From: Somniosus microcephalus
Taxonomy: Eukaryota
Assembly (NCBI GenBank): GCA_052327205.1
Contig: CM126205.1
Location: forward strand, 154,070,001-154,134,000
Length of the DNA: 64,000 bases
Direction of reading: 5' to 3'
Shown here in pieces: positions 30,401-64,000 of this stretch. Position 1 is the first letter of the stretch. Each line of letters opens with the position of its first letter. The position numbers and the translations under genes were made by a program. The notes under the pieces were generated by a model. It was not told where the DNA came from and ran no database searches. It was given only the letters and a program-made list of their open reading frames with translations.

Positions 30401-31662
30401 TCTCCCCCCCCGCCTCTTCTCTCCCCCCCCGCCTCTTCTCTCCCCCCCCGCCTCTTCTCTCCCCCCCCGCCTCTTCTCTCCCCCCCCGCCTCTTCTCTCC
30501 CCCCCCGCCTCTTCTCTCCCCCCCCGCCTCTTCTCTCCCCCCCCGCCTCTTCTCTCCCCCCCCGCCTCTTCTCTCCCCCCCCGCCTCTTCTCTCCCCCCC
30601 CGCCTCTTCTCTCCCCCCCCGCCTCTTCTCTCCCCCCCCGCCTCTTCTCTCCCCCCCCGCCTCTTCTCTCCCCCCCCGCCTCTTCTCTCCCCCCCCGCCT
30701 CTTCTCTCCCCCCCCGCCTCTTCTCTCCCCCCCCGCCTCTTCTCTCCCCCCCCGCCTCTTCTCTCCCCCCCCGCCTCTTCTCTCCCCCCCCGCCTCTTCT
30801 CTCCCCCCCCGCCTCTTCTCTCCCCCCCCGCCTCTTCTCTCCCCCCCCGCCTCTTCTCTCCCCCCCCCGCCTCTTCTCTCCCCCCCCGCCTCTTCTCTCC
30901 CCCCCCGCCTCTTCTCTCCCCCCCCGCCTCTTCTCTCCCCCCCCGCCTCTTCTCTCCCCCCCCGCCTCTTCTCTCCCCCCCGCCTCTTCTCTCCCCCCCG
31001 CCTCTTCTCTCCCCCCCGCCTCTTCTCTCCCCCCCGCCTCTTCTCTCCCCCCCGCCTCTTCTCTCCCCCCCCGCCTCTTCTCTCCCCCCCCGCCTCTTCT
31101 CTCCCCCCCCGCCTCTTCTCTCCCCCCCCGCCTCTTCTCTCCCCCCCCGCCTCTTCTCTCCCCCCCCGCCTCTTCTCTCCCCCCCCGCCTCTTCTCTCCC
31201 CCCCCGCCTCTTCTCTCCCCCCCCCGCCTCTTCTCTCCCCCCCCGCCTCTTCTCTCCCCCCCCGCCTCTTCTCTCCCCCCCCCGCCTCTTCTCTCCCCCC
31301 CCGCCTCTTCTCTCCCCCCCCGCCTCTTCTCTCCCCCCCCCGCCTCTTCTCTCCCCCCCCGCCTCTTCTCTCCCCCCCCCGCCTCTTCTCTCCCCCCCCG
31401 CCTCTTCTCTCCCCCCCCGCCTCTTCTCTCCCCCCCCGCCTCTTCTCTCCCCCCCCGCCTCTTCTCTCCCCCCCCGCCTCTTCTCTCCCCCCCCGCCTCT
31501 TCTCTCCCCCCCCGCCTCTTCTCTCCCCCCCCCGCCTCTTCTCTCCCCCCCCCGCCTCTTCTCTCCCCCCCCGCCTCTTCTCTCCCCCCCCGCCTCTTCT
31601 CTCCCCCCCGCCTCTTCTCTCCCCCCCCCCGCCTCTTCTCTCCCGCCCCCCCCCCCCCCCCG
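27420..31662. repeat. Polypyrimidine minisatellite, unit GCCTCTTCTCT(C)7-9, about 4.2 kb
   Basis: Direct reading; 18-20-nt units that differ in C-run length. Confidence 0.98.
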
Positions 31663-31852
31663 TACCCTCTCACTCCCCGCCCCCTCTACGCTGGGAATTG
31701 TGCTATGACCCTCAATCACATCATCTGACATGTTGTTTTTATTTCTGGTTTTTATTTTCCCCTTCTTGCTTTGCTCCATTGTGGCATCCTTTTTTTTGTT
31801 TATCCTGATGGAGTCTCATTCTAAACATTAACCAATCTTTCTCTTTCTGGTA

Positions 31853-32090
31853 TAACAACAGAAAACGCTGGAAAAACTCAGCATCCCTTTTGTTCTTTCA
31901 TCTCCTCCCCCTTTTCCCAGCCCCTAAACTTGCTTTCCATTTTCTGCTTTTTTCCAGTTTCGACGAAGGGTCATCGACCTGAAACGTTAACCCTGTTTCT
32001 CTCTCCACGGATGCTGCCTGGCCTGCTGAGTGTTTCCAGCGTTTTCTGTTGTTATTTCGGATTTCCAGCATCTGCAGTATTTTGCTATTG
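31853..32090 (+). mobile_element. Penelope-derived short repeat with a short inverted 5' piece
   Basis: CGACGAAGGGTCATCGACCTGAAACGTT hammerhead-like core; 31853-31883 is complementary to about 32024-32054. Confidence 0.62.
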
Positions 32091-32823
32091 TATTTCTCTT
32101 TCTGGTGCTGAGTCACCTGTTTGATGTTGTTTATTTCCCTTTGGGTTCTCTTGTTCCATCTATTCTTTACAGAAGCTAACATTATTTCTTGCTGTTTGAG
32201 TTTAAATGCTCTCTGTCCCATGATCCCCTAATGGATTCACTGCCTGTAAGGGCGTGTCAGTTTCTCGATAATGGAACAGGATTTTACCCATACTCCTTTG
32301 CCAGAGTTGACATCATTCTATAATCACTGCGAATTACACTGTGACAGAGCAGCCTGGGGGCAACTTTAAGGTCGGGGTGAACTGTCAAGGTCAATTTTAT
32401 AGAGCTTTATTGCAGCAAATAATTGCAAGACATATTTTGAAATTGTATTTTACTTTGGTACACTGAGCAGCATCCCAACCACTGGAGTACTGTGCTCAGA
32501 GGACTTCAGTTGGAATCCTACCCCAGATGCACACTTGCAGCCTGCTACTTTGTAGGTTGATATAGTTAAATCTTGAGGAGGCTAAAGAGGACAGCATTGC
32601 GATGCAAATGTTAGAGGCATAAGTATTAACAATTTGACCTCCTGACACCATCTTCTAGATGTGTTGAAAACTTCCATTGTGTGGTGTTTCCTGAAATGTG
32701 TCCACAGCTGCTAATGACCAGGCTATAATGTTGGCCCTGATGCAGAGTGCAGCTTGGTATGATGTGATGAGAAAATGCATGAACGAGCTGTGACAGATGG
32801 TTTTTTTTTCTGCTGTGTTGCAG

Positions 32824-32892
32824 GTTGCTGCAGAGGAGGAAGGAGACAGCTCATCAAATGAGAGTTCAGAATTTCTACCAGCAGCTCCTCTG
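32824..32892 (+). CDS. MCM3AP: MCM3AP/GANP exon (LLQRRKETAHQMRVQNFYQQLL)
   Basis: gtgttgcAG/GTacag; matches human TAHQMKVQHFYQQLL; phase 2-2. Confidence 0.95.
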
Positions 32893-33232
32893 GTACAGGA
32901 ACTCGTTTGTGAAATTTTGTGGCGTAGATTCAGTTGCAGACACCATTGACATTCTCACCTTTCACAAAGGATAGTCATTGCTCTGTTTATTTAGGCTGTT
33001 GAGTTACAGTCCCCACCACCTATACCGTCGCCGTTTATCCAGGACAGCCATCTATATAACTGGCAAATGTTGCTGACCACTTGCTATTAGAATAGGCATC
33101 AATTATAAAGGTGTCGCTTAAACTGCATTAAGACGACCAACTATTTCAGGCAGGTCAAACAGCTCTTCGGGGTCCTCTTCTATCCGCCCCTGTTCACTGG
33201 TGTACACCTCGCAGCACTAGTTTTAATGGTTC

Positions 33233-33971
33233 TTTTACTTGTTCATGGGATGTGGACGTCGCTGGCAAGGCCAGCATTTATTGCCAATCCCTAATTGCCC
33301 TTGAGAAGGTGGTGGTGAGCCACCTTCTTGAACTGCTGCAGTCCTTGCGGTGAAGGTACTCCCACAGTGCTGTTAGGGAGGGAGTTCCAGGATTTGGACC
33401 CAGTGACGATGAAGGATCGGCGATATATTTCCAAGTCAGGATGGTGTGTGACTTGGAGGGGACCTTGGAAGTGATGGTGTTCCCATGCGCCTGCTGCCCT
33501 TGTCCTTCTAGGTGGAAGAGGTCGTGGGTTTGGGAGGTGCTACCGAAGAAGCCTTGGCGAGTTGCTGCAGTGCATCTTGGAGATGGTACACACTGCAACC
33601 ATGGTATGCCGGTGGTGGAGGGAGTGAATGTTTAAGGTGGTAGATGGGGTGCCAATCAAGCGGGCTGCTTTGTCCTGGATGGTGTGAATACCCAGCCTCT
33701 GAGCTGCTCTTGTAGCCACAGTATTTGTATGGCTGGTCCAGTTAAGTTTTTGGTCAGTGGTGACCCCCAGGATGTTGATGGTGGGGGATCCAGCGATGGT
33801 AACGCCATGAAATGTCATGGGGAGGTGGTTAGACTCTCTCTTTGGAGATAGTCATTGCCTGGCACTTGTGTGGCGTGAATGTTACCTGCAACTTATCAGC
33901 CCAAGCCTGAATGTCGTCCAGGTCTTGCTGCATGTGGGCATGAACTGCTTCATTATCTGAGGAGTTGCAAA
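33233..33971 (-). mobile_element. 3' fragment of the tRNA-headed LINE family
   Basis: Reverse complement of 25380-26240, with internal deletion. Confidence 0.85.
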
Positions 33972-34188
33972 TGGGAATAATATAATGTATTTGAATCAGT
34001 CCCTTATTAAGTGTTAATTTCTGAAACGCATTCACAAATGAGGTGGCAATGTTTCCGGAACTTTGAAATTGACCAGGGCAGTTTGTAGGTAGCAACCTCT
34101 ACAGTCTAACTGTTACTTTCGGAGGAGCTGATGATTATACGAACAAAGAAATATATAAATTTAGCCGTTTGCACTGTTGTAATGTATT

Positions 34189-35654
34189 TGTAAGAAGTCA
34201 CACAACACCAGGTTATAGTCCAACAGCTTTATTTGAAATCACAAGCTTTCAGAGCGCTGCTCCTTCGTCAGGTGAAGTGGAGAAATGCATAAAGACACAG
34301 CTTATATAGTCAGAGAATCATGTCAGATGTTTACAGGTAATGTTTCCAACTGCCATTTATCACACCTCGGCAGAGAGATAATCACAGCAATCAAAGGGGT
34401 GAATGGTGTCCAAACAGGTCAGTCAGGAAAACATTACATCAAAGAACAATGAGGTTGGGTCACAAGGGGTCAAATATTGCAGATGCTGGGGTCTGTATGA
34501 AAAACAAAAAAACAGACAAAAAACATTTTTTTTTGTTGCTGGAAATCACAGCAGGTCCGGCCGCATCTGTGTAGAGAGAACAAGCCAATGTCGACTCGAG
34601 TCATCCAGTACTTTCCCGGAGCGGAGAAACTACGCCATGTTCTTCGCAGCCTTCAACATGTCATTGATGACGACGAACACCTCGCTAAGCCATCCCCACG
34701 CCTCCACTACTCGCTTTCAAACAGCCGCCTAACCTCAAACAGACCATCGTTCGCAGCAAATTACCCAGCTTTCAGGAGAACAGCGACCACGACACCACAC
34801 AACCCTGCCACAGCAACCTCTGCAAGACATGCCAGATCATCAACACAGATACCATCATCACACGTGAGGACACCACCCACCAGGTACATGGTACATACTC
34901 ATGTGACTCGGCCAACGTTGTCTACCTCATACGTTGCAGGAAAGGATGCCCCGGAGCATGGTACATCGGCGAGACCATGCAGACACTGCGACAACGGATG
35001 AACGGACACCGTGCAACAATCACCAGGCAGGAGTGTTCCCTCCCAGTCGGGGAACACTTCAGCAGTCAAGGACATTCAGCCTCCGATCTTCAGGTAAGCA
35101 TTCTCCAAGGTGGCCTTCGAGACACACGACAACGCAAAATCGTCGAGCAGAAACTGATAGCCAAGTTCCGCACCCATGAGGACGGCCTCAACCGAGATCT
35201 TGGGTTCATGTCACGCTACATGTAACCCCACCTGACGCAGGGTCATCCAGACTCGAGTCGACATTGGCTTGTTCTCTCTACACAGATGCGGCCGGACCTG
35301 CTGTGATTTCCAGACCCCAGCATCTGCAATATTTGACCCCTTGTGACCCAACCTCATTGTTCTTTGATGTAATGTTTTCCTGACTGACCTGTTTGGACAC
35401 CATTCACACCTTTGATTGCTGTGATTATCTCTCTGCCGAGGTGTGATAAATGGCAGTTGGAAACATTACCTGTAAACATCTGACATGATTCTCTGACTAT
35501 ATAAGCTGTGTCTTTATGCATTTCTCCACTTCACCTGACGAAGGAGCAGCGCTCTGAAAGCTTGTGATTTCAAATAAAGCTGTTGGACTATAACCTGGTT
35601 TTGTGTGACTTCTTACATTTGTCCACCCCAGTCCAACTCCGGCATCTCCACACG
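34189..35654 (+). mobile_element. Penelope-like element: GIY-YIG endonuclease end flanked by ~400-bp inverted pLTR arms
   Basis: SANVVYLIRC...WYIGETMQTLRQRMNGH; 34189-34602 is the reverse complement of about 35250-35616; TSD TAATGTATT at 34180 and 35655. Confidence 0.9.
35531..35567 (+). ncRNA. Minimal type-I hammerhead ribozyme motif in the Penelope pLTR
   Basis: TCAC-CTGACGA-A-GGAGC-AGC-GCTCT-GAAA-GCT-T-GTGA: core boxes, stem II, palindromic AGCT stem III, TCAC/GTGA stem I. Confidence 0.65.
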
Positions 35655-36036
35655 TAATGTATTTGAATCACCCTGTTATTAAATATTAAGTTCTGAAAGA
35701 CATTCACAAACACAGCGGCAGCAATTCAGGAGCTTTGAAATTGACCAGGACAGGGCTTTAGAGGACATTACTTTTGAACGGTGTGATTTTAATTTTATTA
35801 ACTCTACCACGTTGTACCAGCCGTCATGTATCGTGGGCACATTGCATTTGCATGGACATGCGGTTTAAAGTGGTGGGGACTATAAATAGCTGAAAGGATC
35901 TTTTGTCCAGATGGAGTCAATGGGCAGTGCACTTTGTTGTATATGATTTAAGGGCCGCTAATGTTTGTTGTATATGATGCCCATGAGGCAAGATACAGCA
36001 GTTATTCCTAAATTTGAATTCTAATTTATCTTTTAG

Positions 36037-36171
36037 TGAAGCTGCCTGGACTCCTTTGGATTTGTTCACATTGGTTGCAGATAGCTTCCCAACTCGTCAG
36101 GAGAAAATCTTCTGGAAGGTTGTTCTACTGTTGCCAAGTGATGAAGAATATGGACTTAGTGACAGCAACAG
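36037..36171 (+). CDS. MCM3AP: MCM3AP/GANP exon (EAAWTPLDLFTLVADSFPTRQEKIFWKVVLLLP...)
   Basis: atcttttAG/GTtagc; matches human [31 protein letters not shown]; phase 2-2. Confidence 0.95.
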
Positions 36172-36785
36172 GTTAGCTTCTAAACCCAGTGACTCCCTGT
36201 CTCTCTGTTTTAAGCCGTATTTTGTTAAGTGTTTGCCATCTTACTGACTCCAGTTTGCTGTACCAGTCGATGAGTTGTAAACTGTAAATGTGCCACAACT
36301 CACCTCATTCAGCATTTGACTAGCTGCCTGGGCGAGTTGTCTAGCCAAGCTAATCCATACCAGGAGGGAGGGCAATTCTGCTCATCTTTGAATGGTTGGT
36401 TACAAAGACAGTGCAAGGGGCCTTGGAGTAGATTGTACACCCACCCTGTCACCTGAGGACTGGTGCAGGGCACAGAGGAGCCAAAAGGGAGTGTTTGTTT
36501 GGTGAGGGTGTGGCTCCCTCCTGGGTTCCTCTGTCTCTGGGAGCTAGGCACACCTGCAGCAGAGAGGGAGGGGGATGGTTGGGCAATGTCCTTTCCAGCC
36601 TCCTCTCACTGCTGCTGTCGGCCAGCATGTAGGAAATCCATACGTTGGCTGGAGACTGTCTTGTTTTTCCACCTCCTCAGAAAGATGCTTGGCTTTTGCT
36701 CAGCCTCACCAATGCACTCCCCTCCCCTCTCCCAATGGTGCAGCTGAGGCAGGAAACTCGGCAGAGTGGGAGGAACCAAACACAT

Positions 36786-36847
36786 CTCTGACCAGTGCCA
36801 CCACACCAATGCTCTGACCAGTGCCACCACACCGATGCTCTGACCAG
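36786..36847. repeat. 26-bp tandem repeat x2.4
   Basis: CTCTGACCAGTGCCACCACACC(A/G)ATG. Confidence 0.85.
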
Positions 36848-39800
36848 CAACACTATCTCAAAAGTAACTTTAAATAGATGGAGAACAATATCAGGCTCCA
36901 TCAGTGGAAGTGTCCATGTGGTAATCTGGTTTGAAAGATATTTTAGGGGAGGTTTTCCTGGGAATGTGCCCAGTTGCACTGGATCATGGTGCAGAGAATA
37001 TCGGAACATTGGACATGTGCTCCAACCTGCCCAGGTGATTCAGTGCATCCAGGCGCAGACCCAGGAGACCCTCCACCTGAACCATTATGACACTAATTAA
37101 ATTTAATTAAACCTGAGCTGAAACAAACAGCCATTAGTTACATACTGAACCATTTAACCTCTTGTCTAAACGTATAGGATTCAGGAACGGAAACCTTGGC
37201 CTGTGATTTGTGGTCAGTGGGGAAACAAAGACGTTCGCCGCTGGCCCCGAAGTAAGCTTCCCACAAAGATCTTGCGATCTTTGTGGCGAGCAGTTTGGCT
37301 TTTCCGACGTTCAGTTGAAATCAGTGTAAGTTAATGGGAATCCCTAACGTAAGCTGCTGTGACGTCAACAAGCTGTCTAAGCAGCCAATCACAATGCGGA
37401 ATTCTCACAGACTGGGAACTAGGACGCGAATAAGCTCCTTTTATTCTAACTTTTAAAAAATGTTAGAGAGAGCAAAACAAAGACTGGGGCTCTCACTCGG
37501 GGAAAAGGCAAACCTGAAATAAAGATGAACAAACTTTTTCGTTCGATGTTATTACCCAATTCTGGGCTCTTGGTTTTTTTTTAACCCCCAGCCCTGAGAA
37601 CTGAGTCCAGATGAAGTATTCTCACTGTAGCCTGCCTGAGATAAGCTAACTCAGCACAGACCTCTGATCTTCTCGTCCGCATGGCAGCTACGGTAGCGTA
37701 GTGGTAATGTCACTGGGCTAGTAATCCAGAGTTCAAATCCCACCACGGCAGCTGGGGAATTTAAATTCAGTTAATTAAATCTGGAATAAAAAGCTTGTAT
37801 CAGTAATGCTGATCATGAAACTACTGGATTGTCGTAAAAACCCATCTGGTTCACTAATGTCCTTTAGGAAAGGAAATCTGCCAGCCTTACCTGGTCTGAC
37901 CTATTTGTGACTCCAGACCCACAACAATGTGGTTGACTCTTAACTGCCCTCTGAAATGGCCTAGCAAGCCACTCAGTTGCAACAAACCGCTACGAAACAA
38001 AATAATAAGAATGAAACCAGACAGAACATCCGGCATCGACCTCGGCACCGGCTACAGACACGACAGTGGCACACCCAGCCCAGTCAACCCTGCAAAGTCC
38101 TCCTCACCAACATCTGGGGACTTGTACCAAAATTGGGAGAGCTGTCCCACAGACTAGTCAAGCAACAGCCTGACATAGTCATACTCACAGAATCATACCT
38201 TTCAGCCAATGTCCCAAACTCCTCCATCACCATCCCTGTCCCATCGGCAGGACAAACCCACCAGGGGTGGCGGCACAGTGGTATACAGTCGGGAAGGAGT
38301 GGCCTTGGGAGTCCTCAACATTAACTCCGGACCCCATGAAATCTCATTGCTTCAGGTCAAGCATGGGCAAGGAAACCTCCTGCTGATTACCACCTACCGC
38401 CCTCCCTCAGCTGATGAATCAGTACTCCTCCATGTTGAACACCACTTGGAAGAAGTACTGAGAGTAACGAGGGCACAGAATGTACTCTGGGTGGGTGACT
38501 TCAATGTCCATCACCAAGAGTGGCTTGGTAGCACCACTACTAACCGAGCTGGCTGAGTCCTGAATGACATAACTACCAGTCTGGGCCTGCGACAGGTGGT
38601 GAGTGAACCAACACAAGGGGGAAAACCTACTTGACCTCGTCCTCACCAATCTACCTGTCACAGATGCATCTGTCCATGACAGCATTGGTGGCAGTGACCA
38701 CCACACAGTCATTGTGGAGACGAAGTCCCGTCTTCACACTGAGGAACACCCTCCATCGTGTTGTGTGGCACTACCACCGTGCTAAATGGGATAGATTCAG
38801 AACAGATCTCGCAGCTGAAAACTGGACATCCATGAGGTGCTGTGGGCCATCAGCAGCAGCAGAATTGTATTCCACCACAATCTATAACCTCATGGCCTGG
38901 CATATCCCTCACTCTACCATTACCATCAAGCCAGGGGACCAACCCTGGTTCAATAAGGAGTGTAAAAGTGCATGCCAGGAGCAGCACCAGGCGTACCTAC
39001 AAATGAGGTGCCAACCTGGGGAAGCTGCAACACAGGACTACATGCATGCTAAAAAGTGTAAGCAGCATGCTATAGATAGGGCTAAGTGATCCCACAATCA
39101 ACGGATCAGATCAAAGCTCTGCAGTCCTGCCGCATCCAGTCGGGAATGGTGGTGGACCATGAAACAACTAACGGGAGGAAGAGGCGCCATGAATATCCCC
39201 ATCCTCAATGATGGTGGAGCCCAGCACGTGAGTGCAAAAGACAAGGCTGAAGCGTTTGCAACCATCTTCAGCCAAAAGTGCCTAGTGGATGATCCATATC
39301 GGCCTACTCCTGAGATCTCCACCATCACAGAAGCCAGTCTTCAGCCAATTCGATTCACTCCACGTGATATCAAGAAACGGCTGAGCGTACTGGATACAGC
39401 AAAGGCTATGGGCCCCGACAACATCCCGGCTACCATGCTGAAGACTTATACTCCAGAACTAGCAGCGCCTCTAGCCAAGCAGTTCCAGTACAGCTACAAC
39501 ACTGGCATCTATCCGACAATGTGGAAAACTGCCCAGGTATGCCCTGTCCACAAAAAGCTGGACAAATCCAACCCGATCAATTACCGCCCCATCAGCCTAC
39601 TCCCAATCATCAGCAAAGTGATGGAAGGTGTCATCGACAGTGTTATCAAGCGGCACTTACTCACCAAAAACCTGCTCACTGATGCCCAGTTTGGGTTCCG
39701 CCAAGACCACTTGGCTCCCGACCTCATTACAGTCTTGGTCCAAACATGGACAATTGAGCTGAATTCTAGAGGTGAGGTGAGAGTGACTGCCCTTGACACC

Positions 39801-41006
39801 AAGGCAGCATTTGACGGAGTATGGCATCAAGGAGCCCTAATAAAACTGAAGTCAATGATAATCGGGGGGAAAATGCTCCACTGGCTGGAGTCATACCTAG
39901 CACAAAGGAAGATGTTTGTGGTGGTTGAAGGTCAATCATCACAGCCCCAGTACATCGCTGCAGGAGTTCCTAGGCCCAACCATCTTCAGCTGCTTCATCA
40001 ATGACCTTCCCTCCAACATAAGGTCAGAAATGGGGATGTTCGTTGATGACTACACAGTGTTCAGCGCCATTCACAACTCATCAGATAATGAAGCAGTCCA
40101 TGCCCGCATGCAACAAGACCTGGACGACGTTCAGGCTTGAGCTGATAAGTGGCAAGTAACATTCACGCCACAGAAGTGCCAGGCAATGACTATCTCCAAC
40201 AAGCGAGAGTCTAACCACCTCCCCTTGACATTCAATGGCATTACCATCGCCGAATCCCCCACCATCAACATCCTGACCAGAAACTTAACTGGACTAGCCA
40301 CATAAATACTGTGGCAACAAGAGCAGGTCAGAGGCTAGGTATTCTGCGGTGAGTGTCTCCCTTCCTGACTCCCCAAATCTTTTCCACCATCGACAAGGTA
40401 CAAGTAAGGAGTGTGATGGAATTCTCTCCCGTTGCCTGGATGAGTGCAGCTCCAACAACACTTGAGAAGCTCGACACAAAGCAGCCCGCTTGATTGGCAC
40501 CCCATCCACCAGCTTAAACATTCACTCCCTCCACCACCGGCGTACCATGGCTGCAGTGTGCACTATCTACAAGATGCACTGCAGCAACTCGCCAAGGCTT
40601 CTTCGGCAGCAGCTCCCAAACCTGCGAACTCCACCACCTGGAAGGACAAGGGCAGCAGGTGCATGAGAACACCACCACCCCCAAGTTCCTCTCCAAGTCA
40701 CACACCATCCTGACTTAGAAGTATATCGCTGATCCTTCTTCATCGCTGGGTCAAAATCCTCGAACTCCCTCCCTAACAGCACTGTGGGAGTACCTTCACC
40801 ACACGGACTGCAGCGGTTCATAAATAGAGGCATAGAGTACAAAAGCAAGGAAGTTATGATGAACCTTTTGTGGTAAACCACTGTTATAGTTATCACTGTA
40901 TATTGTTCTCACTGTTCTCACTGTCACATCACTACACGAGGTCGCCTCTTGTCGCACTGTTATACCTGGGCTGACCACCTCCGACTCCGCCCATTACCTG
41001 CCCAGG

Positions 41007-41089
41007 TATAAAGGTAGCTGACTGGCTAGTATTCCTCCCTGTTGGATCGGATCACCCACGAGGGTGGGCTCTGTTATTTAGCCAATAAA
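41007..41089 (+). promoter_or_regulatory. LTR TATA box (TATAAA at 41007) and polyA signal (AATAAA at 41084)
   Basis: Motifs in the expected U3/R order, preceded by a GC box (CTCCGCCC). Confidence 0.6.
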
Positions 41090-41171
41090 AACCTTCAGTT
41101 ACGTTCTTAACTCGTCGCCTTTTATTGGACTAATTGATAGGCATATCAATTTTATTGGCTAAATTTTAAAG

Positions 41172-44100
41172 ATGTCTGATAATGAACAGCAACAGCAAGG
41201 AGCTCACCCAGCAGCACAGCAACAGCAGCCTCCAGACAACGGGCCACACCAGCCGGCTTGGCTGCAAGCCTTGAAACCACCATACCTGGATCTAAACCCA
41301 CAGGCACCAAACTCAGCCAACGACTTCAAACACTGGCTGGACTGCTTCGAATCGTACCTGGAGGAAGCCGTCGTCCCTCAGAGATCCAAACTAAGAGTCC
41401 TGAAAGCCCAAGCGAGCCCGAGAGTATATACACTCATCCAGGACATGACTACGTACGACGACGCCATCAACCTACTGAAACAGCAGTACCGGAGCCCGGT
41501 AAACTACATGTACACTAGGCATCTCTTAAGATCTCGCCAGCAACAGCCAGGAGAATCGATAGCTGAATTTTCACGAGCGCTGAGACAACTCGGCAGGAAC
41601 TGTGACTTTAAAGCGGTGACGGCTACTGCGAACATGGAAGACAATGTCCGCAACGCCTTGGTGAGAGGCCTACGTTCCGACTACACACGGCAAAGACTGC
41701 TTGAAGCTAAGGACATAGACCTGGACAAGGCCGAAGCCCTCGCCCTCACCCTAGAGGCCACCCAGCAAGACCAGGAAGCGTTTGCCAGGTACTATTCGCG
41801 ACCCTGGGACTCGGGCCCGACCCCCACCCCACCACCCTTCATAGCGCTGCCCCCGGGACCTACCTCAGCGTCTGCATCACGGATCCGACCGGGCCCGCTA
41901 GCCCCGGTACCGGCCCCGACATCAGGCAACCCCGATCGGGCCGCTGGCTGCTTCTTTTGCGGCCAGGAGAAGCATCCGAGGTCGCGCTGCCCAGCCAAAA
42001 ACTCGACCTGCAAAACCTGCCTCAAGAAAGGCCACTTCTCCAAGGCCTGCAGAAGCAAATCCTCAGAAGCCAGCAGTGCCTCATGCGAACCCTGGGGGCG
42101 GCCATCTTTGTGCGGGGCAGCCGAAGCCTGCAGAGCCTCATGGGAACAGCAGGGGCGGCCATCTTTGTGCGGGGCAAACGATTTAAACAGAGCCTCATGT
42201 GAACTACGGGGGCCGCCATCTTCGCCGCCATCTTGTCATGACAACGACGCGCTCATCTACACCCTAGCTTCCGTGACCCTGGATCAAGCCCGCCCGCACC
42301 ACCTGGCCAGCTCAATGATGGACATCAAAGTCAACGGCCACGCCACGACCTGCCTGTTCGACAGCGGAAGCACGGAGAGCTTCATCCACCCAGACACGGT
42401 GAGCCACTACTCCCTCCCCGTCCTGCCAACGCGCAGCCGCATCTCGATGGCATCGAGGTCGCACGCCACAGACATCAGCGGCTACTGTGTCGTGACATTG
42501 TCGGTTAAAGGGACAGAGTATAAAAATTTTAAACTCCTCGTACTCCCCCAGCTGTGCGCTGCCGTCATACTAGGGCTGGACTTCCAATCCCACCTCCAAA
42601 GTGTAACCCTAGCATACGGTGGACCCCTCCCCCCACTCACAGTCGACAACCAGCGAAAGTTAAACCGCCCACCGCGTAACACCTGCAGCCTATCCACCCT
42701 CAAGGTACCGCCACCTTCCCTGTTCGCTAACCTCACCCCCGACTGCAAACCTGTCGCTACTAAGAGCAGGCGGTACAGCGCTGGGGACAGAGCCTTCATT
42801 AGCTCTGAGGTGCAGCGACTCCTGAAAGAGGGCATTATTGAGGGGAGCAGCAGCCCCTGGCGTGCCCAGGTGGTGGTAGTCAAGACCGGCGACAAAAATC
42901 GCCTGGTTATCGACTACAGCCAGACCATAAACAGATACACCCAGCTGGACGCATACCCCCTCCCCCGCATATCGGACATGGTCAATGAGATTGCACAATA
43001 CCGCGTATTCTCGACCATCGACCTCAAGTCGGCCTACCACCAACTCCCCATCAGCCCGGAGGACAGCCAGTACACCGCCTTCGAGGCGAATGGCCGCCTC
43101 TACCAATTCCTTAGGGTCCCCTTTGGTGTCACCAACGGGGTCTCGGTTTTCCAACGGGAGATGGACCGGATGGTTGACCAGAACGGACTACAGGCCACTT
43201 TCCCCTATCTCGATAACGTCACCATCTGCGGCCGCAACCGGCAGGACCATGACGTGAATCTGGAGAAATTCCTCCGTACGGCCCAACGGCTGAACCTCAC
43301 CTACAATAAGGAGAAATGCGTGTTTAACACAGCGCGCCTTGCCATCCTTGGCTGTGTAGTAGAGAACGGAGTCATCGGCCCCGACCCCGAAAGAATGCGC
43401 CCCCTCATGGAGCTACCCCTCCCCCACTGTCCAAAAGCACTTAGGAGAACCCTGGGGCTTTTCGCCTACTATGCCCAATGGGTACCCAATTATGCGGACA
43501 AAGCCAGACCCCTCCTGAAAACCACATCCTTCCCCCTCACGGAAGAGGCGTGCGCGGCCTTCTCCCTCATTAAGGGAGACATAGCCAAGGCCACAATGCA
43601 CGCAGTGGATGAGTCAATCCCCTTCCAAGTGGAGAGCGATGCATCCGACTTCGCCCTAGCCGCTACCCTTAACCAGGAGGGTAGGCCGGTAGCCTTCTTC
43701 TCAAGGACCCTACAGGGCCCCGAGACCCGACACTCGTCGGTCGAGAAGGAAGCCCAGGCAATTGTGGAAGCAGTACGGCGCTGGAGGCACTACTTGGCAG
43801 GCAAACGATTTACCCTCCTCACCGACCAACGCTCGGTTGCCTTCATGTTTAATAACAAGCTGAGGGGCAAGATCAAGAACGACAAAATCTTGAGGTGGAG
43901 AATCGAGCTTTCCACCTATGATTATGAGATCTTGTACCGGCCCGGTAAACTGAACGACCCCCCTGATGCTCTTTCACGCATTACATGCGCCAGCGCGCAA
44001 AGTGATAGACTTCAGACCCTCCACAATGACCTCTGCCACCCCGGAGTCACCAGACTCTACCATTTCATTAAGGCCCGCAACCTGCCATACTCCATCGAGG

Positions 44101-45041
44101 AGGTCAGGACCATGACCAGGAACTGCCAGATCTGTGCTGAGTGCAAACCGCACTTCTATAAGCCGGACAGAGCAAGCCTGATCAAGGCCACCCGCCCCTT
44201 CGAGCGTCTGAGCATCGACTTCAAGGGGCCCCTACCGTCATCCGACCGTAATGTGTACTTCCTCAACATCGTTGATGAGTACTCCCGTTTCCCCTTTGCC
44301 TTCCCCTGCCCAGACATGACCAGTAACACGGTCATTAAATGCCTGAACAAACTCTTCGCCTTGTTCGGGTTCCCGAACTATATACATAGTGACCGGGGCG
44401 CCTCCTTCATGAGCGAGGAACTCCGTCAGTTCCTATTGGAGAGGGGTATTGCAGCAAGCAGGACCACCAGCTACAACCCCCGAGGGAACGGCCAGGTGGA
44501 AAGAGAGAACGCGACGGTATGGAAGGCCACCCTCTTAGCCTTAAAGTCTAAGGGCCTCCCAACCTCCCGCTGGCAAGAGGTCCTCCCGATTGCGCTGCAC
44601 TCCATCCGGTCACTACTTTGCACTGCCATTAACACCACCCCCCATGCCCGAATGTTTGTCTTCCCCAGGAAGTCGACTACGGGAACCACCCTACCAACCT
44701 GGCTGACCTCTCCGGGACCCGTCTTGCTGCGAAAGCACGTGAGGGCCCATAAAACGGACCCCCTGGTCGAGAAGGTGAACCTCCTGCACGCCAACCCCCA
44801 GTACGCCTATGTGGCTTACCCAGACGGACGGGAGGACACTGTCTCCTTACGAGACCTCGCACCCTCACCCCCCCCTCCCAACCCCCCGAGTCCAGCCGAG
44901 GTAGACGGCATGCCGGAACCCCACGAGCCTTTGCCGACTACGCAGACACCAGCTTTAACACCGGATAATGTAACACCGCCGCTGCGACGATCGGAGAGGC
45001 TAACGAAGCCTCCGGACAGACTGACATACCAGAGCTGGTAA
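41172..45041 (+). CDS. Gypsy Gag-Pol polyprotein, 1289 aa
   Basis: Two CCHC knuckles, protease LFDSGS, RT (IDLKSAYHQ, PFGV, YLDN), RNase H (SDAS, EKEA, TDQ), integrase (HHCC, DFKGP, SDRG, VERE); order PR-RT-RH-IN. Confidence 0.96.
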   Translation: MSDNEQQQQGAHPAAQQQQPPDNGPHQPAWLQALKPPYLDLNPQAPNSANDFKHWLDCFESYLEEAVVPQRSKLRVLKAQASPRVYTLIQDMTTYDDAINLLKQQYRSPVNYMYTRHLLRSRQQQPGESIAEFSRALRQLGRNCDFKAVTATANMEDNVRNALVRGLRSDYTRQRLLEAKDIDLDKAEALALTLEATQQDQEAFARYYSRPWDSGPTPTPPPFIALPPGPTSASASRIRPGPLAPVPAPTSGNPDRAAGCFFCGQEKHPRSRCPAKNSTCKTCLKKGHFSKACRSKSSEASSASCEPWGRPSLCGAAEACRASWEQQGRPSLCGANDLNRASCELRGPPSSPPSCHDNDALIYTLASVTLDQARPHHLASSMMDIKVNGHATTCLFDSGSTESFIHPDTVSHYSLPVLPTRSRISMASRSHATDISGYCVVTLSVKGTEYKNFKLLVLPQLCAAVILGLDFQSHLQSVTLAYGGPLPPLTVDNQRKLNRPPRNTCSLSTLKVPPPSLFANLTPDCKPVATKSRRYSAGDRAFISSEVQRLLKEGIIEGSSSPWRAQVVVVKTGDKNRLVIDYSQTINRYTQLDAYPLPRISDMVNEIAQYRVFSTIDLKSAYHQLPISPEDSQYTAFEANGRLYQFLRVPFGVTNGVSVFQREMDRMVDQNGLQATFPYLDNVTICGRNRQDHDVNLEKFLRTAQRLNLTYNKEKCVFNTARLAILGCVVENGVIGPDPERMRPLMELPLPHCPKALRRTLGLFAYYAQWVPNYADKARPLLKTTSFPLTEEACAAFSLIKGDIAKATMHAVDESIPFQVESDASDFALAATLNQEGRPVAFFSRTLQGPETRHSSVEKEAQAIVEAVRRWRHYLAGKRFTLLTDQRSVAFMFNNKLRGKIKNDKILRWRIELSTYDYEILYRPGKLNDPPDALSRITCASAQSDRLQTLHNDLCHPGVTRLYHFIKARNLPYSIEEVRTMTRNCQICAECKPHFYKPDRASLIKATRPFERLSIDFKGPLPSSDRNVYFLNIVDEYSRFPFAFPCPDMTSNTVIKCLNKLFALFGFPNYIHSDRGASFMSEELRQFLLERGIAASRTTSYNPRGNGQVERENATVWKATLLALKSKGLPTSRWQEVLPIALHSIRSLLCTAINTTPHARMFVFPRKSTTGTTLPTWLTSPGPVLLRKHVRAHKTDPLVEKVNLLHANPQYAYVAYPDGREDTVSLRDLAPSPPPPNPPSPAEVDGMPEPHEPLPTTQTPALTPDNVTPPLRRSERLTKPPDRLTYQSW

Positions 45042-46517
45042 TACACTTCACCCCGCCGGACTCTAATCTAAACAAGGGGTGAATGTGGTAAACCACTGTT
45101 ATAGTTATCACTGTATATTGTTCTCACTGTTCTCACTGTCACATCACTACACGAGGTCGCCTCTTGTCGCACTGTTATACCTGGGCTGACCACCTCCGAC
45201 TCCGCCCATTACCTGCCCAGGTATAAAGGTAGCTGACTGGCTAGTATTCCTCCCTGTTGGATCGGATCACCCACGAGGGTGGGCTCTGTTATTTAGCCAA
45301 TAAAAACCTTCAGTTACGTTCTTAACTCGTCGCCTTTTATTGGACTAATTGATAGGCATATCACCTTTATAAAACACTGGTTCGGCCTCAACTGGAGTAT
45401 TGTATCCAATTCTGGGCACTGCACTTTAGGAAGGATGTGAAGGCTTTAGAGAGGGTGCAGAAAAGATTTATAAGAATGGTTCCAGGGGTGAGGGACTTCA
45501 GTTACAGTTACGTGGATAGACTGGAGAAGCTGGGGTTGTTCTTCTTAGAGCAGAGATGATTGAGAGGAGATTTTATAGAGGTGTTCAAAATCATGACGGG
45601 TCTAGACAGAGTAGATAGAGAGAAACTGTTCCCATTGGCGAAAGGGTCGAGAACCAGAGGACACAGATTTAAGGTGATTGGCAGAATAACCAAAGGTGAT
45701 GTAAGAAAAATCTTTTATACTCAGCGAGTGGTTATGATCTGGAATGCACTGCCTGAAAGGGTGGTGGAGGCAGACTCAATCGTGGCTTTCAAAATGGAAT
45801 TGGATAAATGCTTGAAAGAAAAGAAATTGCAGGGCTACGGGGAAAAGGTGGGACTAGCTGAAGTGCTTTTGCAGAGAGCCAGCACGGGCCGAATGGCCTC
45901 CTTCTATGCTTTAACCATTCTATGATTCTATGGTTCAAGAAGGCGGCTCACCACCACCTTCTCGAGGGCAATTGGGGATGGGCAATAAATGCTGGCCTTG
46001 CCAGCGACGCCCACATCCCATAAACGAATAAAAAAAACTTCTACCAACTGAGCCACTGGAGGAGCATTGCTGCTGTAAAATTGTGAAGTACATGCAACAA
46101 AGCCCAAGTCCTGAGAATGAGCATGGTCGAGTACCGTGGAGCGCAGCATTATTGACTGTAGGACCAGTTCAACTCACTGACACTTGAATTCACACTCTAA
46201 TTTTAAATAGCGCTGGTGAGAGGAGCATATGGCAAGTGTGACCCCAGCTGGTAACTTCCTCCACGCTCAGGCAGCCAGGCGATGCCAGTGCACCAGCACT
46301 GCACACACTGCTGATTAAAATTTAAAGTGCCGCTCAGCCTGGGACACGGTTGCAACAATCAACACCGTGGTTTTAAAAAACTTATTTGGACTAATGTGTT
46401 GCAGGAAAATTGCAAACATTTTTTAGCTTGTATCACAAAATGACTTAGTCATTTTTATTTTTAAATTAATTAGAAAATAGAACTACCTTTTACAAAAACA
46501 TGTTTTCCCATTTTTAG

Positions 46518-46668
46518 ACATGTAATTGATTGGCTGAAAGCAAAATTCCAAGGAAGCGAAAGGGCGGATGATCCAGATAGTGATGCTGATGATGTTATTC
46601 AGACACACCTGTGCAAAGCAGTGAGCAGCAGTGAAGCAATCGATGTGCTTGTGCACATCTGTGTAAAG
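46518..46668 (+). CDS. MCM3AP: MCM3AP/GANP exon (HVIDWLKAKFQG...VLVHICVK)
   Basis: ccatttttAG and AAG|GTAAGG; matches human LANWLKVKFMG...VNVCIK; phase 2-0. Confidence 0.93.
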
Positions 46669-48850
46669 GTAAGGGCCCCGCGTGCTCATCTGTGTAAAAG
46701 TAAGGGCCTCGCTAACTCATCTGCAAAGGTAAGGAGTTTGTACACATCTGTGTAAGATAAGGAGCTCGCGCACACATCTTTGTAAGGTAAGGGGCTCGCG
46801 CACACACCTGTAGGGTAAGGAGCTCGCGCACACACCTGTGTAAGGTAAGGAGCTCGCGCACACACCTGTGTAAGGTAAGGAGCTCGCGCTCACATCTGTG
46901 TAAGGTAAGGGGCTCGCGCACACACCTGTAGGGTAAGGAGCGCACGCACACACCTGTGTAAGGTAAGGAGCTCGCGCACACACCTGTGTAAGGTAAGGAG
47001 CTCGCGCTCACATCTGTGTAAGGTAAGGAGCTCGCGCACACACCTGTGTAAGGTAAGGAGCTCGCGCACACACCTGTAAGGTAAGGAGCTCGCGCACACA
47101 CCTGTGTAAGGTAAGGAGCTCGCGCACACACCTGTGTAAGGTAAGGAGCTCGCGCACACACCTGTGTAAGGTAAGGGGCTCGCGCGCACACCTGTAAGGT
47201 AAGGAGCTCGCGCACACACCTGTAAGGTAAGGAGCTCGCGCTCACATCTGTAAGGTAAGGAGCTCGCGCTCACATCTGTAAGGTAAGGGGCTCGCGCGCA
47301 CACCTGTAAGGTAAGGAGCTCGCGCGCACACCTGTAAGGTAAGGAGCTCGCGCACACACCTGTAAGGTAAGGAGCTCGCGCTCACATCTGTAAGGTAAGG
47401 AGCTCGCGCGCACATCTGTGTAAGGTAAGGAGCTCGCGCGCACACCTGTAGGGTAAGGAGCTCGCGCGCACACCTGTAAGGTAAGGAGCTCGCGCTCACA
47501 TCTGTGTAAGGTAAGGAGCTCGCGCGCACATCTGTGTAAGGTAAGGAGCTCGCGTGCACATCTGTGCAAGGTAAGGGGCTCGCGCTCACATCTGTGTAAG
47601 GTAAGGAGCTCGCGCGCACACCTGTAGGGTAAGGAGCTCGCGCGCACACCTGTAAGGTAAGGAGCTCGCGCTCACATCTGTGTAAGGTAAGGAGCTCGCG
47701 CGCACATCTGTGTAAGGTAAGGAGCTCGCGTGCACATCTGTGCAAGGTAAGGGGCTCGCGCTAACATCTGTAAGGTAAGGATCTCGCGCGCACATCTGTG
47801 TAAGGTAAGGAGCTCGCGCGCACATCTGTGTAAGGTAAGGAGCTCGCGCTCACATCTGTGTAAGGTAAGGAGCTCGCGCTCACATCTGTGTACGGTAAGG
47901 AGCTCGCGCTCACATCTGTGTAAGGTAAGGAGCTCGCGCGCACATCTGTGTAAGGTAAGGAGCTCGCGCGCACATCTGTGTAAGGTAAGGGGCTCGCGCA
48001 CACATCTGTGTAAGGTAAGGGGCTCGCGCGCACACCTGTAGGGTAAGGAGCTCGCGCACACACCTGCAAGGTAAGGAGCTCGCGCGCACACCTGTGTAAG
48101 GTAAGGAGCTCGCGCGCAAACCTGTGTAAGGTAAGGGGCTCGCGCTCACATCTGTGTAAGGTAAGGAGCTCGCGCGCACATCTGTGTAAGGTAAGGAGCT
48201 CGCGTGCACATCTGTGCAAGGTAAGGGGCTCGCGCTAACATCTGTAAGGTAAGGATCTCGCGCGCACATCTGTGTAAGGTAAGGAGCTTGCGCTCACATC
48301 TGTGTAAGGTAAGGATCTCGCGCTCACATCTGTGTAAGGTAAGGATCTCGCGCGCACATCTGTGTAAGGTAAGGAGCTCGCGCACACATCTGTGTAAGGT
48401 AAGGAGCTCGCGCACACATCTGTGTAAGGTAAGGAGCTCGCGCTCACATCTGTGTAAGGTAAGGAGCTCGCGCTCACATCTGTGTAAGGTAAGGAGCTCG
48501 CGCTCACATCTGTGTAAGGTTAGGAGCTCGCGCTCACATCTGTGTAAGGTAAGGAGCTCGCGCACACATCTGTGTAAGGTAAGGAGCTCGCGCTCACATC
48601 TGTGTAAGGTAAGGAGCTCGCGCTCACATCTGTGTAAGGTAAGGAGCTCGCGCACACATCTGTGTAAGGTAAGGAGCTCGCGCACACATCTGTGTAAGGT
48701 AAGGGGCTCGCGCTCACACCTGTGTAAGGTAAGGAGCTTGCGCTCACATCTGTGTAAGGTAAGGAGCTCGCGCTCACATCTGTGTAAGGTAAGGAGCTCG
48801 CGCTCACATCTGTGTAAGGTAAGGGCCTCACAGAGCTGTATAAAGGTTAG
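46654..48850 (+). repeat. 28/30-bp minisatellite CACATCTGTGTAAG|GTAAGGAGCTCGCGCT, about 70 units
   Basis: Direct reading; the first unit overlaps the MCM3AP exon end and splice donor. Confidence 0.97.
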
Positions 48851-53800: not shown

Positions 53801-55062
53801 GCCTCTTCTCTCCCCCCCCCCGCCTCTTCTCTCCCCCCCCCCCCCCGCCTCTTCTCTCCCCCCCCCCCCCCCGCCTCTTCTCTCCCGCCCCCCCCCCCCC
53901 GTACCCTCTCACTCCCCGCCCCCTCTACGCTGGGAATTGTGCTATGACCCTCAATCACATCATCTGACATGTTGTTTTTATTTCTGGTTTTTATTTTCCC
54001 CTTCTTGCTTTGCTCCATTGTGGCATCCTTTTTTTTGTTTATCCTGATGGAGTCTCATTCTAAACATTAACCAATCTTTCTCTTTCTGGTATAACAACAG
54101 AAAACGCTGGAAAAACTCAGCATCCCTTTTGTTCTTTCATCTCCTCCCCCTTTTCCCAGCCCCTAAACTTGCTTTCCATTTTGTGCTTTTTTCCAGTTCC
54201 GACGAAGGGTCATCGACCTGAAACGTTAACCCTGTTTCTCTCTCCACGGATGCTGCCTGGCCTGCTGAGTGTTTCCAGCGTTTTCTGTTGTTATTTCGGA
54301 TTTCCAGCATCTGCAGTATTTTGCTATTGTATTTCTCTTTCTGGTGCTGAGTCACCTGTTTGATGTTGTTTATTTCCCTTTGGGTTCTCTTGTTCCATCT
54401 ATTCTTTACAGAAGCTAACATTATTTCTTGCTGTTTGAGTTTAAATGCTCTCTGTCCCATGATCCCCTAATGGATTCACTGCCTGTAAGGGCGTGTCAGT
54501 TTCTCGATAATGGAACAGGATTTTACCCATACTCCTTTGCCAGAGTTGACATCATTCTATAATCACTGCGAATTACACTGTGACAGAGCAGCCTGGGGGC
54601 AACTTTAAGGTCGGGGTGAACTGTCAAGGTCAATTTTATAGAGCTTTATTGCAGCAAATAATTGCAAGACATATTTTGAAATTGTATTTTACTTTGGTAC
54701 ACTGAGCAGCATCCCAACCACTGGAGTACTGTGCTCAGAGGGCTTCAGTTGGAATCCTACCCCAGATGCACACTTGCAGCCTGCTACTTTGTAGGTTGAT
54801 ATAGTTAAATCTTGAGGAGGCTAAAGAGGACAGCATTGCGATGCAAATGTTAGAGGCATAAGTATTAACAATTTGACCTCCTGACACCATCTTCTAGATG
54901 TGTTGAAAACTTCCATTGTGTGGTGTTTCCTGAAATGTGTCCACAGCTGCTAATGACCAGGCTATAATGTTGGCCCTGATGCAGAGTGCAGCTTGGTATG
55001 ATGTGATGAGAAAATGCATGAACGAGCTGTGACAGATGGGTTTTTTTTCTGCTGTGTTGCAG

Positions 55063-55131
55063 GTTGCTGCAGAGGAGGAAGGAGACAGCTCATCAAATGA
55101 GAGTTCAGAATTTCTACCAGCAGCTCCTCTG
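55063..55131 (+). CDS. MCM3AP: Duplicate copy of MCM3AP exon 32824-32892 (probably the alternate haplotype)
   Basis: Same sequence and splice sites at offset 22239, downstream of the N gap. Confidence 0.75.
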
Positions 55132-58100: not shown

Positions 58101-58323
58101 GTACCAGCCGTCATGTATCGTGGGCACATTGCATTTGCATGGACATGCGGTTTAAAGTGGTGGGGACTATAAATAGCTGAAAGGATCTTTTGTCCAGATG
58201 GAGTCAATGGGCAGTGCACTTTGTTGTATATGATTTAAGGGCCGCTAATGTTTGTTGTATATGATGCCCATGAGGCAAGATACAGCAGTTATTCCTAAAT
58301 TTGAATTCTAATTTATCTTTTAG

Positions 58324-58458
58324 TGAAGCTGCCTGGACTCCTTTGGATTTGTTCACATTGGTTGCAGATAGCTTCCCAACTCGTCAGGAGAAAATCTTCT
58401 GGAAGGTTGTTCTACTGTTGCCAAGTGATGAAGAATATGGACTTAGTGACAGCAACAG
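58324..58458 (+). CDS. MCM3AP: Duplicate copy of MCM3AP exon 36037-36171 (probably the alternate haplotype)
   Basis: Same sequence and splice sites at offset 22287. Confidence 0.75.
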
Positions 58459-61400: not shown

Positions 61401-64000
61401 AAGCTCTGCAGTCCTGCCGCATCCAGTCGGGAATGGTGGTGGACCATGAAACAACTAACGGGAGGAAGAGGCGCCATGAATATCCCCATCCTCAATGATG
61501 GTGGAGCCCAGCACGTGAGTGCAAAAGACAAGGCTGAAGCGTTTGCAACCATCTTCAGCCAAAAGTGCCTAGTGGATGATCCATATCGGCCTACTCCTGA
61601 GATCTCCACCATCACAGAAGCCAGTCTTCAGCCAATTCGATTCACTCCACGTGATATCAAGAAACGGCTGAGCGTACTGGATACAGCAAAGGCTATGGGC
61701 CCCGACAACATCCCGGCTACCATGCTGAAGACTTATACTCCAGAACTAGCAGCGCCTCTAGCCAAGCAGTTCCAGTACAGCTACAACACTGGCATCTATC
61801 CGACAATGTGGAAAACTGCCCAGGTATGCCCTGTCCACAAAAAGCTGGACAAATCCAACCCGATCAATTACCGCCCCATCAGCCTACTCCCAATCATCAG
61901 CAAAGTGATGGAAGGTGTCATCGACAGTGTTATCAAGCGGCACTTACTCACCAAAAACCTGCTCACTGATGCCCAGTTTGGGTTCCGCCAAGACCACTTG
62001 GCTCCCGACCTCATTACAGTCTTGGTCCAAACATGGACAATTGAGCTGAATTCTAGAGGTGAGGTGAGAGTGACTGCCCTTGACACCAAGGCAGCATTTG
62101 ACGGAGTATGGCATCAAGGAGCCCTAATAAAACTGAAGTCAATGATAATCGGGGGGAAAATGCTCCACTGGCTGGAGTCATACCTAGCACAAAGGAAGAT
62201 GTTTGTGGTGGTTGAAGGTCAATCATCACAGCCCCAGTACATCGCTGCAGGAGTTCCTAGGCCCAACCATCTTCAGCTGCTTCATCAATGACCTTCCCTC
62301 CAACATAAGGTCAGAAATGGGGATGTTCGTTGATGACTACACAGTGTTCAGCGCCATTCACAACTCATCAGATAATGAAGCAGTCCATGCCCGCATGCAA
62401 CAAGACCTGGACGACGTTCAGGCTTGAGCTGATAAGTGGCAAGTAACATTCACGCCACAGAAGTGCCAGGCAATGACTATCTCCAACAAGCGAGAGTCTA
62501 ACCACCTCCCCTTGACATTCAATGGCATTACCATCGCCGAATCCCCCACCATCAACATCCTGACCAGAAACTTAACTGGACTAGCCACATAAATACTGTG
62601 GCAACAAGAGCAGGTCAGAGGCTAGGTATTCTGCGGTGAGTGTCTCCCTTCCTGACTCCCCAAATCTTTTCCACCATCGACAAGGTACAAGTAAGGAGTG
62701 TGATGGAATTCTCTCCCGTTGCCTGGATGAGTGCAGCTCCAACAACACTTGAGAAGCTCGACACAAAGCAGCCCGCTTGATTGGCACCCCATCCACCAGC
62801 TTAAACATTCACTCCCTCCACCACCGGCGTACCATGGCTGCAGTGTGCACTATCTACAAGATGCACTGCAGCAACTCGCCAAGGCTTCTTCGGCAGCAGC
62901 TCCCAAACCTGCGAACTCCACCACCTGGAAGGACAAGGGCAGCAGGTGCATGAGAACACCACCACCCCCAAGTTCCTCTCCAAGTCACACACCATCCTGA
63001 CTTAGAAGTATATCGCTGATCCTTCTTCATCGCTGGGTCAAAATCCTCGAACTCCCTCCTCTAACAGCACTGTGGGAGTACCTTCACCACACGGACTGCA
63101 GCGGTTCATAAATAGAGGCATAGAGTACAAAAGCAAGGAAGTTATGATGAACCTTTTGTGGTAAACCACTGTTATAGTTATCACTGTATATTGTTCTCAC
63201 TGTTCTCACTGTCACATCACTACACGAGGTCGCCTCTTGTCGCACTGTTATACCTGGGCTGACCACCTCCGACTCCGCCCATTACCTGCCCAGGTATAAA
63301 GGTAGCTGACTGGCTAGTATTCCTCCCTGTTGGATCGGATCACCCACGAGGGTGGGCTCTGTTATTTAGCCAATAAAAACCTTCAGTTACGTTCTTAACT
63401 CGTCGCCTTTTATTGGACTAATTGATAGGCATATCAATTTTATTGGCTAAATTTTAAAGATGTCTGATAATGAACAGCAACAGCAAGGAGCTCACCCAGC
63501 AGCACAGCAACAGCAGCCTCCAGACAACGGGCCACACCAGCCGGCTTGGCTGCAAGCCTTGAAACCACCATACCTGGATCTAAACCCACAGGCACCAAAC
63601 TCAGCCAACGACTTCAAACACTGGCTGGACTGCTTCGAATCGTACCTGGAGGAAGCCGTCGTCCCTCAGAGATCCAAACTAAGAGTCCTGAAAGCCCAAG
63701 CGAGCCCGAGAGTATATACACTCATCCAGGACATGACTACGTACGACGACGCCATCAACCTACTGAAACAGCAGTACCGGAGCCCGGTAAACTACATGTA
63801 CACTAGGCATCTCTTAAGATCTCGCCAGCAACAGCCAGGAGAATCGATAGCTGAATTTTCACGAGTGCTGAGACAACTCGGCAGGAACTGTGACTTTAAA
63901 GCGGTGACGGCTACTGCGAACATGGAAGACAATGTCCGCAACGCCTTGGTGAGAGGCCTACGTTCCGACTACACACGGCAAAGACTGCTTGAAGCTAAGG

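Follow-up and report, generated by a model that had tools for sequence, protein, structure and literature searches.

The window (the whole stretch of 64,000 nucleotides analysed here) contains a complete Gypsy LTR retrotransposon at positions 40869-45363 of the forward strand, with a single open reading frame of 1289 aa (Table 1). This element displays the features of Ty3/Gypsy retrotransposons, including TG...CA LTRs, a target-site duplication (TSD), a polypurine tract (PPT), which terminates in GGGGTGAA, and a protein (P0001) in which Pfam recognises the protease, reverse transcriptase (RT), RNase H and integrase domains in Gypsy order (PR-RT-RNase H-IN). Among solved structures, the best relative of P0001 is Ty3; the RT score of 102 bits to Ty3, versus 166 for an unrelated insect Gypsy element, gives only a weak hint as to whether the RT groups with Tf1, sushi and fungal chromoviruses. 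Because the copy is intact and its LTRs are identical, the element is young and recently active, and the trait described below therefore belongs to a recently active element. The linker between gag and protease comprises 2.8 in-frame repeats of a 57-bp unit (42066-42222).

The flanks of the element are repeat-derived. LINE-type fragments lie at 5022-5768, 11682-13031, 18092-19258, 20370-21389 and 39090-40004 (four RVT_1 matches and one GDSL-like ORF1-type match), and long pyrimidine-rich satellite arrays with 18-19-bp units occupy 27433-31649 (223 copies) and 50861-53839 (164 copies). A minisatellite with 74 copies of a 30-bp unit (46654-48824) is located close downstream of the element. A second copy of the element's 5' end is found at the right end of the window, within an apparent tandem duplication of ~22.3 kb (28475-41712 and 50849-64000), which is either a true duplication or an assembly artefact and whose two copies are 99.9% identical over 6.4 kb, where six substitutions and a single gap distinguish them. 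We rejected the idea that the copy at 63157 represents an independent insertion, since it is part of the tandem duplication and has the same flank, and it thus gives no independent support for the pairing described below. A 307-bp inverted repeat whose arms are 99% identical and ~800 bp apart (34189-34602 and 35311-35617) is present in the duplicate as well and is possibly a young DNA transposon.

Table 1. Features of the Gypsy element and of its duplicated 5' end, in window coordinates.
Feature	Position	Strand	Remarks
Left target-site duplication CCTTT	40864..40868	+	identical 5-mer at 45364-45368
5' LTR, 280 bp, TG...CA	40869..41148	+	0 mismatches to 3' LTR
GC-box-like motif CCGCCC	40987..40992	+	motif scan; putative, function inferred
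TATA-like motif TATAAA	41007..41012	+	69 nt 5' of paired segment; putative promoter
Predicted self-primer segment ATTTAGCCAATAAAA	41076..41090	+	exact complement of 41150-41164; pair probabilities 0.63-1.0
Poly(A) hexamer AATAAA	41084..41089	+	sole one in LTR
Imperfect internal copy of PBS-position sequence, in U5	41120..41134	+	12/15 ungapped, first 9 nt exact
8-bp hairpin spanning LTR end	41132..41151	+	predicted probability ~0.2
Single unpaired spacer nucleotide (A41149) between LTR end and PBS position	41149..41149	+	1-nt offset in 6/6 loci
PBS position TTTTATTGGCTAAAT, complementary to LTR, not to a tRNA 3' end	41150..41164	+	
gag-PR-RT-RNase H-IN single ORF, 1289 aa	41172..45041	+	two CCHC knuckles, RT YLDN, no chromodomain
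Polypurine tract AAACAAGGGGTGAA	45070..45083	+	GAA then TG, as in relatives
3' LTR	45084..45363	+	identical to 5' LTR
Right target-site duplication CCTTT	45364..45368	+	
Duplicated 5' LTR, PBS position (63438-63452) and start of gag	63157..64000	+	within 22.3-kb tandem duplication, same flank

The 15 nucleotides at the primer-binding site (PBS) position, 41150-41164, are the exact reverse complement of the LTR segment at 41076-41090, which includes the only AATAAA hexamer of the LTR. An earlier note on this DNA had drawn attention to this match, along with a start codon 23 nt after the LTR, an imperfect internal copy near 41120 and a TATA box about 70 nt from the paired segment, and all of these are where it had placed them (ATG at 41172; other positions in Table 1). 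Its remark that the LTR is not directly followed by TGG is correct for the nucleotides at the junction, A41149 and then TTTTATTGGCTAAAT, but it left unmentioned a TGG at 41156-41158 (leader positions 8-10, 7 nt into the leader), which is kept in none of the five relatives described below.

A coincidental match in AT-rich sequence is conceivable, as the duplex itself is rich in A and T and a complement of 15 nt arose 11 times when the 23-nt leader was shuffled 20,000 times. However, 20,000 LTR shuffles that preserved dinucleotides never produced a 15-nt complement (best 12), and the comparative data presented below, with the same register in 6/6 loci and complements of only 5-8 nt in controls, refute a chance origin, whose probability we consider negligible. 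When all positions of the window were scanned, complements of at least 13 nt formed six clusters, two of which correspond to the feature and its duplicate and four to unrelated inverted repeats. The region is predicted to fold around the 15-bp helix as its core, with a z-score of -4.66 for positions 41070-41175 and of -3.0 for positions 41035-41180. The 8-bp hairpin that the earlier note had described across the LTR end does exist in the sequence, but it is predicted to be a minor conformer of the ensemble; a 6-bp version could coexist with the full 15-bp duplex. The internal copy in U5 shows pair probabilities of 0.89-1.0 in the fold of the 3' LTR and of 0 in the fold of the 5' end. The paired LTR segment also includes a CCAAT-box-like motif, AGCCAAT (41080-41086), absent in the relatives, and an Inr-like TCAATTT is located at the LTR end (41146-41152).

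Related elements were obtained from a scan of GTDB contigs, in which 42 candidate stretches yielded seven loci (L001-L007). All of them are animal-type retrotransposons in contigs of bacterial MAGs, and we infer that host DNA contaminates these assemblies. The junction between LTR and leader is present in five loci, among them two circularly permuted contigs with one LTR (L001 and L002) and three loci with two LTRs (L004, L005 and L006), of which L005 and L006 have 5-bp TSDs; L003 and L007 were excluded from the junction count because they do not include the 5' junction. As L004 and L005 represent one family, the sample, with the window element included, consists of five families, and the five-family counts do not include L004, which is the decayed member of the L005 family.

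The longest perfect complements measure 15 nt in the window element, 14 in L001, 13 in L002, 10 in the decayed L004 and 14 in both L005 and L006, values attained by 0, 0, 25, 76, 0 and 0 of 20,000 LTR shuffles, respectively. In all six loci, the pairing begins 1 nt past the CA of the LTR, leaving that nucleotide unpaired, and the LTR arm extends as far as the final A of the hexamer or a single A further, with loops of 23-58 nt and leaders of 21-28 nt. The hexamer begins 8 nt into the arm in four of the five families, and pairing ends abruptly after 13-15 bp. L001 has ATTAAA in its LTR, matched by TTTAAT at its PBS position. Each LTR segment pairs at 13 of 13 positions with its own PBS and at 6-12 of 13 with those of the other loci, and the LTRs of different families are unalignable elsewhere, except for 30 nt common to L005 and L006. 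The controls with complements of only 5-8 nt comprised four junctions between a 3' LTR and host flank as well as two Gypsy elements belonging to different clades.

In an alignment of the five families, for which the start of the window element was placed by hand to fall in register, 69 of 70 cells are paired, and none of 500 shuffles scored as high, slid registers being 29-49% paired. Two-sided changes affect 10 of the 14 pairs, a count that overstates independence, since two of these columns stem from a one-A slip (AATAAA vs AATAAAA) and L001, L005 and L006, which have the core GTTGAWTAAA in common, are not fully independent. RNAalifold, applied to the unadjusted six-locus alignment, chose the same helix unprompted. 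The earlier note would have counted a lack of conserved pairing in related families as refutation; the families compared here do conserve it, so that the interpretation withstood this test. As judged from the sequences of five families, the LTR complement at the PBS position is a trait of the clade, and its retention in four other distant families makes self-priming likely in this lineage.

Outside the paired segments, the loci show features of their own. In L002, which among the junction-bearing loci is the one closest to the window element, a stem in U5 ends beside the PBS and TTTTATT recurs as an internal copy (3304-3335), as in the window element, and U5 stems in the window element, L001 and L002 are family-specific. 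L004 and L005 carry a second AATAAA in U5, and in L006 (8365-8475) the PPT and LTR start are tandemly repeated three times (~55 bp) ahead of the 3' LTR.

Over RT/RNase H, the nearest named proteins come from Hypanus, Scyliorhinus, Narcine and Mobula (76-83%), which points to a cartilaginous fish as the host, followed by sea anemone and nematode proteins (~60-65%), and the protein clusters also include members from Pocillopora, Porites and Acropora. In an RT/RNase H tree with 39 rows (32 of 246 proteins, chosen for spread, and seven loci; the RT match of L006 was too short for inclusion), the window element, L001-L005 and L007 form one clade (support 100/99), in which the loci with pairing are distributed over three different sub-branches. 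Its long stem separates it from three unnamed gag matches and L008, the tree containing no named references. L008 (1-5332 of NZ_CP087956.1), deposited as a circular Wolbachia plasmid, resembles a one-LTR circle of an insect Gypsy element. A search with gag gave four matches, the nearest outside ones at 25-26% identity, and the RT/RNase H identity of the clade to these outside gag matches is 30-31%; we take the nearest of them to carry RT motifs of Mag type. No match to the element was found in the phage collection, one distant element only was found in the plasmid collection, and the Atlas returned generic RT clusters without a clade name.

The gag of the window element contains two CCHC knuckles. 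The RNase H residues D826, E869, D888 and D935 are invariant in 66 of 66 aligned proteins. The active-site motif of its RT is YLDN (43206-43217) rather than YxDD; among the 121 proteins examined, YxDN was found in 92, YxDD in 27 and neither in 2. YxDN is known from Bel/Pao elements. Pfam detected no chromodomain in P0001, nor was one found in its tail or in five relatives at E-values up to 1, and the chromodomain family PF00385 is absent from the precomputed domains of the 120 homologues listed. By the chromodomain criterion, the clade as represented by these proteins falls outside Tf1/sushi. The earlier note had invoked Tf1/sushi elements as the established case of self-priming; the parallel stands for the mechanism but not for membership in that group.

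Reverse transcription needs some primer, and the 3' end of this primer fixes the right end of the cDNA; when a tRNA serves as the primer, its sequence is copied into the PBS during plus-strand synthesis. For the clade described here, the sequences make it quite likely that minus-strand DNA is self-primed from the 5' R copy of the LTR segment, without a tRNA primer. In the RNA, the 13-15-nt LTR stretch ending on the hexamer would fold back onto the PBS position, and a cut immediately 3' of the hexamer, probably made by the RNase H of the element itself, as in Tf1, would release it, so that the freed stretch could prime minus-strand synthesis. The plus strand would then copy the primer back into the PBS, which would keep the arms matched and explain the sharp outer edge of the pairing, and the sequence between the hexamer and the poly(A) site, remaining after the cut, would serve as R homology when the first strand jumps. 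Of the two R copies, the 5' one is more likely to act as the primer, as its short loop of 23-58 nt would be closed during transcription. Self-priming, as already inferred in the earlier note, gains support from the conservation of the pairing in related families, the two-sided changes, the fixed register and the lack of a TGG-type tRNA site in the relatives. All six loci qualify as predicted self-primers by the definition of Neumann et al. (at least 10 bp, starting 0-5 bp after the LTR; PMC6317226).

A host tRNA could conceivably act as the primer, either with its 3' end at the TGG located 7 nt after the LTR of the window element or as a tRNA half, with the LTR complement being incidental. Half-tRNA primers occur in Copia lineages (PMC6317226), and in mosquito Mag elements the primer is tRNA-Leu, -Ser or -Arg (PMC3286476). 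However, the leaders of all five relatives lack any TGG, and the PBS sequence varies between families in step with the LTR segment. ARAGORN detected no tRNA genes in the window, and Rfam gave no matches at gathering score; at E-values up to 10, it returned nine sub-threshold, hairpin-type matches in 40860-41260, none to a tRNA family, a weak test for a 15-nt sequence. One of the Rfam matches, MIR169_2 (21.6 bits, cut-off 50), merely reflects the hairpin and was rejected. Overall, we regard priming by a tRNA as very improbable.

Alternatively, concealment of the poly(A) signal in the 5' LTR could be the sole purpose of the pairing, with reverse transcription relying on another primer. A leader is present at the 5' LTR only, the hexamer lies inside the paired segment in all six loci, and its predicted accessibility in L001, L002 and L006 is 0.02-0.06 with the leader, as opposed to 0.48-0.84 without it. 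A retroviral precedent for the occlusion of a 5' poly(A) signal is the polyA hairpin of HIV-1, which likewise holds the hexamer in a stem of the 5' LTR; in the window element, by contrast, the other strand of the stem comes from beyond the LTR, namely from the PBS position, whose register to the LTR end is fixed. We favour self-priming over masking because the constant 1-nt register to the LTR end is demanded by priming and not by masking, which by itself would also leave the clade devoid of a primer site. Moreover, the 5' hexamer of L005 is poorly hidden, as a rival structure is predicted once 45 nt of upstream sequence are included (hexamer unpaired 0.57). The selective masking of the 5' signal considered in the earlier note is weaker for the window copy, whose U5 copy is predicted to cover the hexamer of the 3' LTR too (unpaired 0.01) once the RNA extends 45 nt beyond. 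Masking as the sole function of the pairing thus appears distinctly improbable, while a side role is plausible: according to the predicted folds, coverage of the 5' hexamer is probably a secondary effect of the pairing.

A different source of the primer would be the 3' end of the RNA. In this scenario, the 3' R copy pairs with the PBS and circularises the RNA, trimming or cutting removes the poly(A) tail together with ~20 nt as far as the hexamer, and the end thus created is extended by RT. Such a route would account for the constant end of the primer on the hexamer, and it would fit a transcription start 25-40 nt upstream of the segment, which would provide R homology 5' of the primer; in addition, predictions for the processed RNA leave the 3' copy mostly unpaired (0.59-0.87). 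However, the 5' copy, only 23-58 nt away from the PBS, is predicted to occupy it first, the two copies are indistinguishable by sequence, and the portions of the literature searched offer no precedent, making 3'-end self-priming improbable in our view.

If the 5' R copy acts as the primer, its 5' end may lie at the cap, as in Tf1, or 25-40 nt inside the RNA, two geometries that are about equally likely on sequence grounds. Tf1 RNA pairs with the PBS through its first 11 bases and is cleaved by RNase H between bases 11 and 12 (PMC7175516). If the arms are kept matched through primer copying, the outer edge of the pairing would mark the 5' end of the primer, which favours transcription from 41076, where an Inr-like TTATTT has its A. 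By contrast, the GC-box and TATAAA, located 89 and 69 nt upstream, predict a start near 41032-41038, ~40 nt before the segment and thus unlike Tf1, and L005 and L006 have TATA- or Inr-like motifs 25-38 nt upstream of the segment, again unlike Tf1. The promoter motifs thus point both ways. Tf2 uses alternative transcription starts (PMC5341516).

The likeness to Tf1 and Tf2 of Schizosaccharomyces and to other Tf1/sushi elements lies in the lack of a tRNA site and in the complementarity between a stretch of the LTR and the nucleotides that follow the 5' LTR immediately, and the Gypsy domain order and presence of RNase H are likewise those of Tf1/sushi chromoviruses. Apart from lacking a chromodomain, the clade differs from Tf1 in that its duplex measures 13-15 bp instead of 11 and ends on the poly(A) hexamer, that its loop spans only 23-58 nt and that a primer at the cap is one of two candidate geometries. 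Of the three-duplex 'pretzel' of Tf1/sushi elements (bioRxiv 10.1101/2022.12.06.519325), only the central helix emerged as conserved across the six loci, next to the family-specific U5 stems of the window element, L001 and L002. In plants, Tcn1 (Gypsy) and TAR/Houba/Osr-1 (Copia) are predicted self-primers (PMC6317226). They share the computational criterion with the clade described here, which differs from them as an animal, chromodomain-less Gypsy lineage; the excerpts available from PMC6317226 make no mention of hexamer anchoring for the plant elements. Skipper of Dictyostelium, with its polypyrimidine PBS, and fungal GalEa are further LTR elements without a TGG-type PBS. They differ from the window clade in that the Skipper LTR has no complementary region (PMC5006619) and the GalEa hairpin lies within the internal domain (PMC6934838).

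The general architecture of the element is reminiscent of the Mag lineage (A/B/C clades) of Gypsy elements, whose gag has two CCHC knuckles and with which it shares this double CCHC gag, short LTRs, a 5-bp TSD and a compact size. Cigr-1, a 4.2-kb single-ORF element, is similar to the window element in size. Unlike the Mag-type gag matches, however, the clade has its RT/RNase H on a long separate stem and mostly YxDN, and it lacks the tRNA-type PBSs present in mosquito Mag elements (PMC3286476).

Among Gypsy elements, the portions of the literature searched tie self-priming to Tf1/sushi chromoviruses. They contain no report of self-priming in a chromodomain-less animal Gypsy clade and none of a primer whose end coincides with the poly(A) hexamer. 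Self-priming is mentioned in some Repbase entries on Gypsy families of animals, so that prior notice of it in such families is possible. It is tempting to speculate, albeit with considerable doubt, that a widespread animal Gypsy clade (cartilaginous fish, corals, sea anemones and trichinellid nematodes), unrelated to chromoviruses and endowed with a YxDN RT, has independently evolved self-priming along a previously undescribed route, using an internal or 3'-terminal primer that is cut or trimmed exactly at the hexamer. A single duplex would then silence the 5' poly(A) site and at the same time determine the cDNA end.

If self-priming holds true, this chromodomain-less animal clade would represent a further, independent loss of tRNA priming, and its members would evade control exerted by 3' fragments of tRNAs. 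Termination of the primer on the hexamer would define a precise, testable cut site and tie priming to 3'-end formation. LTR finders that require a tRNA PBS would miss or mis-score the clade, for which the pattern 'hexamer ... CA-N-TTT' may provide a usable signature.
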